Below are positions 49,823 to 53,482 of a DNA stretch of 64,000 nt, one piece after another. Origin of the DNA: a virus (taxonomy: Duplodnaviria; Caudoviricetes); the IMG/VR virus record IMGVR_UViG_3300032218_002424, positions 32,001-96,000 of that record; one strand, 5' to 3'. Positions within the stretch are counted from its first letter, which is position 1. The number at the start of each line of letters is the position of its first letter. The notes beneath the pieces are model-generated. The model made no database searches, had not been told where the DNA came from, and saw nothing but the letters and a program-made list of their open reading frames with translations. The translations under genes and the position numbers were made by a program.

Positions 49823-49829
49823 AAGTAAA

Positions 49830-49871
49830 TGCTATAATATATAGGTACCTGCCTTCGGGGGGTACCTATAT
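49830..49871 (+). promoter_or_regulatory. Extended -10 promoter and 5' UUCG hairpin of hsp20
   Basis: TGCTATAAT (49830-49838), then TATAGGTACC...CCTTCGGG...GGTACCTATA. Confidence 0.7.
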
Positions 49872-49900: not shown

Positions 49901-50329
49901 ATGGTAACACAATTTACTATGGATCTTTTTAATGATCCTTTTTTCATCGGGTTTAATCGTGACTTTGACAAGTTGTCAAGAATTCACACCCATGCTACAG
50001 GAAATAACTATCCACCATACAATGTAATCAAAACTGACGACGAAGATCTATTCTACGTTGAAGTTGCAGTTGCTGGATTCTCAAAAGAAGACCTTGAAGT
50101 AACTGCTCATGAGCAGGTTCTTACTGTTAAGGGAGAAATCAAGTCTTCTGATGACGAGGAACCAAAGTATGCTTATCGTGGTATTGCTGCAAGAAAGTTT
50201 ACTCGTGAATTTGCCCTTGGTGAATTTGTTGAGGTAACTGCTGCAACAGTTGAAAACGGAATGTTGAAGATCACCTTGGAACGTATTGTCCCAGAAGACA
50301 AGAAGCCAAAAACAATTAAGATCAAGTAA
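49901..50329 (+). CDS. Small heat-shock protein (Hsp20/IbpA-like)
   Basis: NYPPYNV, AVAGFSKEDL, RGIAARKFTREF, ENGMLKI.L.R.VPE..KPK.I.I. Confidence 0.93.
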   Translation: MVTQFTMDLFNDPFFIGFNRDFDKLSRIHTHATGNNYPPYNVIKTDDEDLFYVEVAVAGFSKEDLEVTAHEQVLTVKGEIKSSDDEEPKYAYRGIAARKFTREFALGEFVEVTAATVENGMLKITLERIVPEDKKPKTIKIK

Positions 50330-50334
50330 CATTA

Positions 50335-50367
50335 AGGACCTGAGCATGTCCTATCATAAACTGCTCA
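50335..50367 (+). ncRNA. H-type pseudoknot motif, copy 1
   Basis: AGGAC-CUGAGCAU-GUCCU stem-loop; loop UGAGCA pairs with downstream UGCUCA; second copy at 63025. Confidence 0.6.
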
Positions 50368-50386
50368 TTTTAACAGAAAGCTTATA

Positions 50387-50569
50387 ATGCCAGTATACGA
50401 ATATAAGTGCATGAATTGCAACAGCAATGTAGAAGTTACAAGAGGATTTAATGATCCAGATGTTGCACCAATTTGCACAAATTGTCAAGGAACGATGCAA
50501 AGGCATTATGGTTCTGTTGGTGTTCAGTTTAAAGGTTCAGGGTTCTACAAAACAGACAATCCAAAATAA
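50387..50569 (+). CDS. FmdB-family zinc-ribbon protein
   Basis: MPVYEYKC..C...C..C...FKGSGFYKTD. Confidence 0.88.
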   Translation: MPVYEYKCMNCNSNVEVTRGFNDPDVAPICTNCQGTMQRHYGSVGVQFKGSGFYKTDNPK

Positions 50570-50626: not shown

Positions 50627-53482
50627 TTGACCAGAAAGTTAAAACTTTTGCTTGCCAGCCTGTTTGTTATGGGTTGGCTTTTTCTATTTCAGGTTAAATC
50701 TGCTCATGCTGATGAAGTCACAATTCAAGTAACTCCAGCTGATCCAAATATATCAGATACATCAACAGTAACCTCTCAAATAACAGTTCAGTCTATTGAA
50801 ACAAAAATAACTGATTCTCAAAATACTTTAAACTCTGCAGCACAGACTCAAAGTACTGCTATCATTCAAACAATTCAAGCAAATTTTTCTAATACAGATA
50901 CATCAACCGCTATATCAATTGCAACTACTCAAGAACCAATTAAAACAGCAGTGGCAGAAGCATCGGTAAAAGTTGAAGCTGCAAACAATGCAATTCAAGC
51001 AGCACAATCTGCAGTTCAGATTGCAGTATCTGCACAAACAAATGTTGAAACTCAAACTGCAGTAGTAACGCAAGCCGTTACTAACTTAGAAACAGCAACA
51101 GCAACTGTTGTTTCAACTCAAAATACATTAAAAACAACACAGGAAGCACAACCTGCTTTAGATGCAACAGCTTCTTGCACACAAGGATCACATTGCGTTG
51201 ATTTTTATAATAAAAACGCTGAGCTAGGGCCTTTACATGACCAGATTGCTCCTACACAGGCAGCAGCTGATGCCGCAGTTGCTGCAGTTCCAGTTGCTCA
51301 AACAGCTGTAGAAGTTGCTACTACAAATGTTACAAACCAACAAACAGCAGTTGCTGAAGCAACAACCGCATCAATCGCAGCAAAAGCAGCAGCAGAGGAT
51401 TCTGCTGTAACTGTTACAACTAATGGAGTTAAAGCATCTGCCTATACGTATAACGGTGGGGCAGCCCCCGCAATTCCTACTGCAAATGTAACCCCTGTTT
51501 TAACAACAACCGTTCCATACATTTCTGCAAACTGGGGTAGCGGTGTTGTTTTAGGTGTTCGTAGCGATAGAGTTATAATTAAATACGAAGGTACTATTAC
51601 TGTTCCAGAAGAAGCAGTTGCAGTTAAGTATGCTGTTTACTCAGATGACGGTTCAAAGCTATACATAGATGGTCAACTTGCTATTAATAACTGGAGAGAC
51701 CAAGGCTCTACATGGAGCCAGTTCTCCCCTATTTATGACACTACTGTAGATAAACAACAAGACTTTATTCTTTGGTATTACGAAAATGGTGGTGGGGCTA
51801 ACGTCACACTTGGTTGGGGTATAACCAGAGCAGACGGAACTGGTTATTGGACTAACCCAATGAACACAGCTTTTGCAACCACAGTGGTTACTAAAGACCC
51901 TGTATTGGTTGCTGCTGCTAATACCGCATCTGCTACTTTTGTAGCAGCTAACCAACAGTTAACAAACGCTCAAACTACTCTTGCTGCAGCTAATCAAACT
52001 CTTACATCCGCACAGGCAGCGGTACCAGTAAAAACTCAAGCTGCTGCAGATGCACAAGCTGCATATGATACAAAACTTGCTGAAAGAAATGCTGCTTATG
52101 AAGCATGGCAAAATGCTATTAATGCTGCAAATTCTGGAGTAGCAGCAATTGCTCAAGCACAATCTGCTTATGATCAAGCACAAATAGATTTAATAACTGC
52201 TCAGACAAATCTAACAACACAACAACAAAATTTAATAAATGCTCAAACAAATTTAACAGTTGCAATTCAAACTGCAGATTCTCTTGCAAATACAACAACA
52301 ACAAAAGTAAATGAAGCAGTAACTGCCATGACAAATGCTGCTCAAGTTACAACAAATTATTATGCAGAGCAACAAAGAATTGCTGCAGAAAATGCTCGTA
52401 TTGCAGCAGAACAAACAGCATTGCAAGCTGCACAAGAAAGAGCTGCTGCAGTAGAACGTGCAAGAATAGCAGAAGCAATCGCTGCTAAAGCAGAAGCAAA
52501 CAGAATTGCTGCAGAACAGGCTATAGTAGATGCAAAGGCTGCACAAGAAAAAGCAGCAGCAGAAGCAAAGGCTGCTGAAGATGCAAGAATTAAAGCAGAA
52601 CAAGATGCTAAAGAAGCACAAGCAGCAGCAGATAAAGCTAAAGCAGAAGCCGAAATTCAAGCAGCAAAAGATGCTCAAACAAAAGCAGATGCAGAAAAAG
52701 CAGCAGCGGATGCTGCAAAAGCGGAGGCGGATGCAAAAGCAAAAGCAGAACAAGATGCTGCATTAGCAGAACAAAAAGCTAAAGACGAAGCTGCAAAGGC
52801 TGCACAAGAGGCTGCAAATGCAAAAGCAGAAGCAGATAAACAAAAAGCAGAAGCAGATAAAATAGCTGCTGATCAAGCAGCAAAAGAGCAAGCAGCAAAG
52901 GATGCAAAAGCACAAGCAGATGCTGTAATTCAAGCACAAAAAGATGCACAAGCAAAAGCTGATGCACAAAAAGCAGCGGAAGATAAAGCTAAACAAGATG
53001 CTATTGGTGTAAAACCAAATAATCCAAGTCAGCTTTCAGACACAGTTATTAAAGAAGCTCCTAAAGAAGTTTTAGTTCCGCACATTCAGCAAGATGTTAA
53101 GGGTGTAGAAAATGGTGGCATTGAATTTTTTGGAACAAAATCAGCACCTCAAGTAGTTGGAGAAGATGGAAAATTAACACCACAAGCACCACCACCAGGA
53201 TCTGGTTTGCCAATTCCACCAGAAGCAATAACAACTCAAGATACATTTATAGGACAACCAGGAGGAACAACATTTAATGCACCAGATATTGCTGTTCCAG
53301 TAATTCTTACACCACTTACTGGTGCCATCGCTTCTGTTCCAGGAGCTGAGGCGGTAAATAAAGCATTCGTAGCTATGGCTAATATTGGAAATGATATGTC
53401 ACCAGTTACGAGAAAGAAAGCTAAAAAAATATTGGTACTGACCGTAGCAGTTGCTGCCATAAGAAGGAGGTTCGGACAATGA
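50627..53482 (+). CDS. Exported PA14-domain protein with a long Ala/Gln coiled-coil stalk and C-terminal hydrophobic segment
   Basis: Signal peptide ending SAHA; NWGSG...SDDGSKLYIDG...NW.DQ...YYENGGGA (PA14); TolA-like AEK-rich repeat. Confidence 0.75.
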   Translation: MTRKLKLLLASLFVMGWLFLFQVKSAHADEVTIQVTPADPNISDTSTVTSQITVQSIETKITDSQNTLNSAAQTQSTAIIQTIQANFSNTDTSTAISIATTQEPIKTAVAEASVKVEAANNAIQAAQSAVQIAVSAQTNVETQTAVVTQAVTNLETATATVVSTQNTLKTTQEAQPALDATASCTQGSHCVDFYNKNAELGPLHDQIAPTQAAADAAVAAVPVAQTAVEVATTNVTNQQTAVAEATTASIAAKAAAEDSAVTVTTNGVKASAYTYNGGAAPAIPTANVTPVLTTTVPYISANWGSGVVLGVRSDRVIIKYEGTITVPEEAVAVKYAVYSDDGSKLYIDGQLAINNWRDQGSTWSQFSPIYDTTVDKQQDFILWYYENGGGANVTLGWGITRADGTGYWTNPMNTAFATTVVTKDPVLVAAANTASATFVAANQQLTNAQTTLAAANQTLTSAQAAVPVKTQAAADAQAAYDTKLAERNAAYEAWQNAINAANSGVAAIAQAQSAYDQAQIDLITAQTNLTTQQQNLINAQTNLTVAIQTADSLANTTTTKVNEAVTAMTNAAQVTTNYYAEQQRIAAENARIAAEQTALQAAQERAAAVERARIAEAIAAKAEANRIAAEQAIVDAKAAQEKAAAEAKAAEDARIKAEQDAKEAQAAADKAKAEAEIQAAKDAQTKADAEKAAADAAKAEADAKAKAEQDAALAEQKAKDEAAKAAQEAANAKAEADKQKAEADKIAADQAAKEQAAKDAKAQADAVIQAQKDAQAKADAQKAAEDKAKQDAIGVKPNNPSQLSDTVIKEAPKEVLVPHIQQDVKGVENGGIEFFGTKSAPQVVGEDGKLTPQAPPPGSGLPIPPEAITTQDTFIGQPGGTTFNAPDIAVPVILTPLTGAIASVPGAEAVNKAFVAMANIGNDMSPVTRKKAKKILVLTVAVAAIRRRFGQ

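Follow-up and report, generated by a model that had tools for sequence, protein, structure and literature searches.

The 64,000-nt window analysed here belongs to an IMG/VR virus record of 109,063 bp, whose G+C content is 36.6% and whose completeness by CheckV is 93%. Within it, an hsp20 gene on the + strand (49901–50329; 142 aa; Pfam HSP20, E=7.6e-19) ends in a TAA codon (50327–50329), and a second stop in the hsp20 frame follows 3 nt past the first. A compact RNA element, pseudoknot copy 1 (50336–50367, +), starts 6 nt past the hsp20 stop, and the ATG of a 60-aa zinc-ribbon ORF of the FmdB type (50387–50569, +; Pfam Zn_ribbon_8, E=2.4e-10) lies 20 nt 3' of it. The hsp20/zinc-ribbon unit is closed by an intrinsic terminator with a 10-bp stem and a T-run (50654–50686, +; stem 50654–50678). 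Since this strong terminator stands 3' of the zinc-ribbon ORF, hsp20 and the small ORF look co-transcribed, and copy 1 is intercistronic. The preliminary description had let the element close the hsp20 mRNA, possibly as a pseudoknot terminator; this placement had to be abandoned, as the element precedes the next start codon and the real terminator lies 290 nt further on. Its remark that hsp20 has no ordinary terminator is correct locally, but a strong one follows the next small ORF. The stem of that terminator falls inside a called TTG-start ORF (50627–53482, a PA14-domain protein), whose true start must therefore lie further downstream.

Pseudoknot copy 2 lies at 63025–63052 (+). Its surroundings, all on the + strand, comprise in order the intrinsic terminator of the preceding unit (62929–62958), a sigma-70 consensus promoter (TTGACA-18-TATAAT, 12/12; 62957–62986), a leader hairpin, the knot, and tRNA-Gly(UCC) followed by tRNA-Gln(UUG) (63063–63211), with tRNA-Gly starting 10 nt 3' of the knot. 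No ORF was found within 100 nt upstream of copy 2. Both repeats are real and have the sequences given for them in the preliminary description, and the pattern CCTGAG-N8-20-AAACTGCTC matched the window twice, compared with 0.00 matches expected from 100 shuffles.

Both copies can be drawn as H-type pseudoknots. In copy 1, S1 is formed by GGAC (50336–50339) and GUCC (50348–50351), which enclose the hairpin loop CUGAGCAU. L1 is C50340, S2 pairs GAGCA (50342–50346) with UGCUC (50362–50366), and U50341 is able to pair with A50367, giving (U)GAGCA/UGCUC(A); L2 is U50347, and the L3 linker UAUCAUAAAC (50352–50361) exceeds the canonical L3 of 6 nt by 4 nt. In copy 2, S1 consists of GAC (63025–63027) and GUC (63036–63038), L1 is CU, S2 pairs GAGUA (63030–63034) with UGCUC (63048–63052) through one G-U pair, and L3 is UAUGUAAAC (63039–63047). 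The copy 2 flanks AAAAUG and CAUUUU (63020–63058) can also pair and enclose the whole knot, unlike copy 1 and the family consensus.

Covariance model R1, built from other phages, found four copies in this phage genome (G000), namely both window sites (copy 1: 24 bits, E about 1e-3; copy 2: 20 bits, E about 7e-3) and two canonical copies outside the window on the - strand, which scored 41 and 40 bits. One of these (105092–105122) has a stop codon 9 nt upstream and stands ahead of an ORF, and the second (103468–103498) lies 6 nt past a stop codon and 4 nt before a tRNA-Asp. The lower scores of the window copies reflect their linkers, which are 3–4 nt longer than canonical. Three of the four copies lie 6–11 nt past a stop codon, and all four are upstream of a same-strand gene or tRNA.

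The motif CCUGAGYAWG...AAACUGCUC with a covarying flanking stem was present in at least 200 IMG/VR phage contigs, and each of three exact-pattern IMG/VR scans returned at least 120 stretches. Several contigs carried 2–4 copies, and tandem knot pairs 57–61 nt apart were seen in two loci (L029:9932–10024 and L062:11872–11953). From 5' to 3', the consensus of alignment A2 reads NNN-C, CU, GAGYA, W, G-N'N'N', NN-AAAC and UGCUC(A). S1 has 3–4 bp of free sequence with a near-invariant C-G closing pair, L1 is CU, and S2 (GAGYA/UGCUC) has 5–6 bp. L3 is 6 nt long in two thirds of the copies and carries extra bases only on its 5' side, including in both window copies; its 3' end is an invariant AAAC, which was fixed by the search patterns, and the U after AAAC is at least 90% conserved. 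The base after AAACU is G, paired within S2.

To the Rfam 15 models the window matched only in its tRNAs at the gathering score, and the three knot copies submitted with E up to 10 gave no relevant match, including to preQ1-I (RF00522) and the riboswitch and ribozyme models. The preliminary description had likewise been unable to assign the element to a named family. A literature search by sequence string and topic found no description of the motif in phages. Both window sites are members of a phage RNA family that is very widespread and as yet uncatalogued; its fold is an H-type pseudoknot, compact at about 27–32 nt.

The pairing of both stems was assessed with patterns that left the stems free. 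The pattern CCTGAGCATG-N5-8-AAAC leaves S1 and the 3' strand of S2 open; among 91 matches from 87 loci picked by that pattern alone, S1 was fully paired in 59, with 29 different stems (chance, about 5%), and the 3' strand read UGCUC or UGCUU in 61. A descriptor with S2 free, applied to the fetched loci, gave 19 further sites outside the search pattern, 10 of which had 5/5 S2 pairs, compared with 0/11 on shuffles. Six of those 10 showed compensatory double changes, such as AAGCA/UGCUU, GAGUA/UACUC, GGACA/UGUCC and AAAUA/UAUUU. In alignment A2, 88% of the cells were paired (S2 cells, 94.5%; slid controls, 26–37%), double changes occurred at all six S2 pairs and four S1 pairs, and the covariation score was 0.433 compared with 0.159 in shuffles, a value reached by 0/500 shuffles; A2 leans towards structure because its sequences were selected for at least 6/8 pairs. 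Covariation thus supports the two stems of the pseudoknot, in tests free of search-pattern forcing. The functional, structured RNA and the H-type pseudoknot put forward in the preliminary description are thereby borne out, with wide recurrence in phage metagenomes and covariation above all 500 shuffles.

L1 and the closing pair were assessed with the pattern GAGCA-N6-10-AAACTGCTC, which leaves both of them free. Of its 182 matches, 145 had CCU ahead of GAGCA, and chance appears to account for most of the others. Three variants (L339, L340 and L345) kept L1 CU and S2 and had the S1 closing pair flipped to G-C. A relaxed descriptor with any L1 and any S2 was dropped, having matched about 15 sites per genome, the same as in shuffles. 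Nested minimum-free-energy (MFE) folding of the copies was no better than that of shuffles (z about -1), which is uninformative because the fold is a pseudoknot. Family-wide, the 40 nt upstream of the knot, often spanning the stop codon, folded with an MFE of -8 kcal/mol or below in 32–36% of cases, compared with 20–22% in shuffles and positional controls, a hint that an accessory hairpin often stands on the 5' side of the knot.

Among cultured phages, Mycobacterium phage Labelle carries a canonical copy 6 nt past the gp85 stop (ON108649.1, 56443–56469), and Cyanophage S-RIM4 (Synechococcus) carries one after a stop codon (MK493321.1, 45615–45640); Paracoccus phages gave BLAST matches only. 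The match in Vibrio phage D456 has CC in place of CU in L1 and is oriented opposite to the annotated small ORFs. In GTDB, the pattern occurred on genome contigs of Saccharibacteria (many), Aminicenantes, Lactobacillaceae, Clostridia, Calothrix/Phormidium, Alistipes, Akkermansia, Brucella and two Methanobrevibacter MAGs, and S1 was fully paired in 80 of 123 GTDB contig matches. Pseudomonas genome matches were set aside as hosts, since S1 was unpaired and the matches lay inside G+C-rich coding sequence, probably by chance. The host groups span cyanobacteria, Bacteroidota, alphaproteobacteria and many bacterial phyla as well as the Methanobrevibacter contigs, and such breadth speaks for a property of the RNA itself or for a partner that is universal. 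The Methanobrevibacter copies (L252:373–401 and L290:1889–1917) are canonical, with S1 fully paired and a long T-run after each; they could belong to an archaeal virus or provirus, or to mis-binned phage DNA.

Genomic context was recorded for 200 non-redundant instances with flanks, counting ORFs of at least 40 codons. A same-strand ORF stop lay at most 15 nt upstream in 108/200 (54%), and in 89/200 the nearest ORF end was over 15 nt away. The distance from stop to S1 was 0–4 nt in 5 instances and 5–9 nt in 85, 31 of them at exactly 5 nt, and the 5-nt onset was also seen in prokaryotic genome contigs. Stop codon usage upstream of the knots was ordinary (TAA 81, TAG 18, TGA 9), and no conserved sequence was found in the spacer between stop and knot in this set of 108 stop-anchored instances. 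The next ORF start was mostly 20–30 nt downstream, which leaves its ribosome-binding site free. In 18/200 (9%), a same-strand tRNA began 4–13 nt downstream, and 17 of these 18 knots also lay at most 19 nt past an ORF stop; ORF-pseudoknot-tRNA arrangements numbered 17, compared with 1 tRNA-pseudoknot arrangement. A crude longest-ORF strand call gave 12 convergent and 15 divergent settings and could not separate end-of-unit from leader positions.

The tRNA directly downstream of the knot was tRNA-Asp in 12/18, and a module of small ORF, pseudoknot and tRNA-Asp recurs in many IMG/VR phages (L041, L086, L145, L161), often after a short Cys-rich ORF ending in ...CAxC..C. The 12/18 probably stem from this conserved module in related phages and not from a specificity for tRNA-Asp.

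The onset at 5 nt would roughly match the footprint of the ribosome, whose helicase and mRNA entry site lie near +11. A stop codon in the A site occupies +4 to +6; after a spacer of 5 nt the first S1 pair would then fall at +12, just beyond the entry site. Because 89/200 copies lie beyond 15 nt of any ORF end, 5 nt is a lower bound and not an optimum. On the simplest reading, the knot must escape melting by the terminating ribosome, and genome compaction crowds the copies at the 5-nt limit. We infer that the knot must remain folded and that it acts either through what the RNA itself can do or through a universal partner.

Of the known elements, the coremin/xrRNA-WCC pseudoknot of plant viruses comes closest. 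Coremin has a hairpin of 3–4 bp (3–5 bp in range) that is closed by a C-G pair and whose loop reads YGAD or YGNNAD, a 10-nt spacer in which AAACUA (A16–A20) is essential, and an obligatory second hairpin, hp2 (PMC6546385, PMC10321173, PMC10520033). In xrRNA-WCC, three loop bases (GAG) pair with the spacer right after AAA, and frameshift stimulation persists without hp2, which Xrn1 resistance strictly needs; these elements occur in RNA viruses, among them beny- and cucumoviruses (Dilweg et al.; PMC6546385, PMC10321173, PMC10520033). Flipping the closing pair of coremin, the change that corresponds to the three variants above, abolishes function. The phage knot shares with coremin a short 5' hairpin with a C-G loop-closing pair, whose S1 covaries, a loop that begins with a pyrimidine and ends in A-D, a linker that tolerates insertions on its 5' side only, and a site just after coding regions. 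Like xrRNA-WCC, whose S2 is GAG/CUC, it pairs loop and linker by Watson-Crick pairs just after AAA(C)U.

The differences are equally clear. The loop of the phage knot has 8 nt (CUGAGYAW) instead of 4 or 6, which leaves just the first Y and the terminal A-D in agreement with coremin; S2 has 5–6 bp instead of the 3 of xrRNA-WCC and is shifted by one nucleotide relative to AAAC; and the base after AAACU is G, not A. An hp2-like hairpin starting 0–4 nt after S2 was found in 63 of 182 cases, compared with 63.1 expected, and is not enriched; the excess of structure within 40 nt downstream of the knot was weak. The hosts are bacteria and archaea, which to our knowledge lack Xrn1. The 8-nt loop, the 5–6-bp S2 and the unenriched hp2 do not support membership of the coremin class and allow at most a coremin-type mode of working, and the element is too short for common descent to be judged. 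Coremin itself is a protein-free mechanical roadblock; the same action of the phage knot is putative.

Other types of element resemble the knot in part. The H-type pseudoknots that stimulate -1 frameshifting (luteovirus BWYV type) are likewise compact, with a short L1 and an A-rich L3 able to dock in the S1 minor groove. In contrast to them, the phage knot has a stop codon and not a slippery heptamer upstream, no extended frame follows, and many copies are far from ORF ends or in tRNA leaders. The intercistronic and 3' stabiliser hairpins of bacterial operons (REP elements, terminator stems) also occur after stops within or at the end of operons, and for them too the proposed role is a block to 3'->5' exonucleases that gives the segments of an operon different stabilities. 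They are long, G+C-rich plain hairpins of species-specific sequence, whereas the phage knot is tiny, of marginal predicted stability and conserved in sequence across phyla.

Among the functions named in the preliminary description, the exonuclease block or roadblock fits the genomic context best as a predicted role, and the knot would probably shield segments of long messages from decay. We tentatively prefer the reading, which is quite possibly but by no means certainly right, that a fold spared by the ribosome caps the RNA end of the upstream cistron. The knot is co-oriented with the neighbouring genes, would be transcribed with them and lies in the ribosome-free gap between cistrons, at least 5 nt past the stop and about 20–30 nt before the next start; at this distance the terminating ribosome would not melt it, so that it would stay folded on the translated message. 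It would then act as a boundary or barrier and cap the RNA of the upstream cistron at its 3' end. Whether that end came from an endonucleolytic cut, from RNase P cutting at a tRNA behind the knot or from decay entering at the operon 3' end, processive 3'->5' exonucleases would halt at the knot. For copy 1, the hsp20 segment would be more stable than the distal zinc-ribbon segment, and in ORF-knot-tRNA arrangements, RNase P cleavage would leave the knot as the 3' end of the upstream message. The cap is favoured by the anchoring to ORF ends, by the 17:1 asymmetry of the tRNA arrangements and by the near universality of 3'->5' exonucleases.

Several observations speak against the 3' cap. Copy 2 sits in a promoter-proximal leader with no upstream ORF, where a cap has no obvious client, and by the crude ORF-strand call about 15/200 family members occupy similar leader positions. 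The predicted nested stability is low. Plain hairpins are usually enough to block 3' exonucleases, so that the strong conservation of L1, S2 and AAAC is left unexplained. The A-rich L3 and the C-G closing pair resemble those of pseudoknots that resist force from the 5' side, such as coremin and the frameshift stimulators.

The main rival is a coremin-like roadblock in the 5'->3' direction, which would stop RNase J, RNase E that scans in a 5'-end-dependent way, or ribosomes sliding on after termination, and would shield or insulate the RNA downstream, that is, the next cistron or tRNA. We regard it as rather unlikely, although copy 2, the other leader copies and the 5'-side-resistant architecture keep it alive. 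Coremin/xrRNA-WCC and the knot have in common the short C-G-closed first hairpin, the pyrimidine in L1, GAG at the start of S2, AAACU, and length variation in the 5' part of the linker only. Coremin stalls both Xrn1 and scanning ribosomes (PMC6546385, PMC10520033). Copy 2 stands in a 5' leader ahead of tRNAs, and every copy in this phage precedes a gene or tRNA that could be shielded. Flavivirus xrRNAs reportedly also block RNase J1. RNase J is treated at length in work on these xrRNAs (PMC5760640). Against this roadblock, hp2 shows no enrichment although coremin strictly needs it for Xrn1 resistance, and RNase J is missing from many bacteria. The order tRNA-pseudoknot-ORF, which would be the best case for a 5' shield, is nearly absent (1 vs 17), and RNase P separates the tRNA from the knot anyway.

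A third reading is directed at the ribosome: the knot would touch the mRNA entry site of the terminating ribosome and modulate termination or recycling, or block re-initiation or coupling. The distance from the stop begins at 5 nt and is most often 5–9 nt, the same range as that of -1 frameshift stimulators, which lie 5–9 nt downstream of the A-site codon. Knots of the WCC type of coremin still stall ribosomes without hp2, with 30% frameshifting, and the universality of the ribosome suits the host range. We nevertheless consider this reading unlikely, since the spacing is a lower bound, 89/200 copies are remote from any ORF end and no ORF precedes copy 2. Nor is copy 1 there for read-through, given the second in-frame stop behind hsp20.

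A self-cleaving ribozyme, or a specific nuclease-processing site, by which polycistronic transcripts would be cut at the borders of cistrons and tRNAs, would agree with the roughly 15 near-invariant nucleotides in unpaired or tertiary positions and with a very broad host range, which suits protein-independent activity. It appears improbable, as 27–32 nt is smaller than any natural self-cleaving class that we know of and no Rfam ribozyme model (hammerhead, twister, pistol, hatchet, HDV-like) matched with E up to 10. The placement between genes and beside tRNAs is like that of phage hammerhead and theta ribozymes (PMC10879173).

Slightly more improbable still is an aptamer, either a preQ1-I-like mini-riboswitch or an operator for a phage or host RNA-binding protein. 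In its favour are the strong conservation of the loop nucleotides and the similarity of preQ1-I (RF00522) in size (about 34 nt), H-type topology and A-rich 3' linker. The knot differs from it in its conserved nucleotides and in lying off the ribosome-binding site, with no queuosine genes associated here, and neither RF00522 nor other riboswitch models matched. The sites follow stops or precede tRNAs instead of covering ribosome-binding sites, the downstream Shine-Dalgarno sequence is outside S2 with the next start 20–30 nt off, and several copies stand beside unrelated genes.

A pseudoknot-assisted intrinsic terminator closing the hsp20 mRNA is scarcely credible: both window copies do have a short T-run on their 3' side, beside which S2 alone gives a hairpin, but a terminator scan called neither of them, the T-run is present in 47/200 family members and missing in 153/200 and in both canonical copies of this genome, so that the U-rich tail of the preliminary description holds for the window copies and is no conserved feature of the family. 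Behind copy 1 come a co-oriented ORF and, after it, a strong canonical terminator, and termination makes no sense for copy 2, which lies between a consensus promoter and tRNAs that need expression.

Built on the core of the coremin knot of eukaryotic RNA viruses, the knot may be the first class of exonuclease- or helicase-resistant RNA ('xrRNA') of prokaryotic viruses, a proposal that we hold to be doubtful though worth stating. If it were true, a protein-independent RNA roadblock would be common to viruses of all three domains, and phages would split long transcripts into separately stable modules such as mRNA segments and pre-tRNAs. A fold of about 30 nt that is absent from Rfam is conserved in sequence from Saccharibacteria phages to mycobacteriophages, cyanophages and Methanobrevibacter contigs, and its placement is precise to a single nucleotide relative to the ribosome footprint. 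As a barrier to decay or translocation, it would explain how neighbouring genes on one phage transcript differ in lifetime and how phages join mRNAs to tRNAs, would provide a very small portable insulator part for synthetic operons, and would connect the RNA biology of phages with the exonuclease-resistant RNAs found in viruses of plants and animals. The cultured carriers Mycobacterium phage Labelle and Cyanophage S-RIM4 allow direct testing.

The hsp20 locus gave no BLASTN match among cultured phages, and the phage is without a close cultured relative. Upstream of hsp20 (49829–49870), an extended -10 promoter-like sequence, TGCTATAAT, precedes a perfect stem-loop, whose loop is UUCG, at the predicted transcript 5' end, and the tRNA promoter (62957–62986) is likewise followed by its leader hairpin (62993–63019); both hairpins may be 5' stabilisers of early transcripts. 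The window also contains a tryptophan halogenase gene (59361–60929; Pfam E=1e-97) with 38–45% identity to halogenases of marine cyanomyoviruses, a likeness that points to an aquatic phage.
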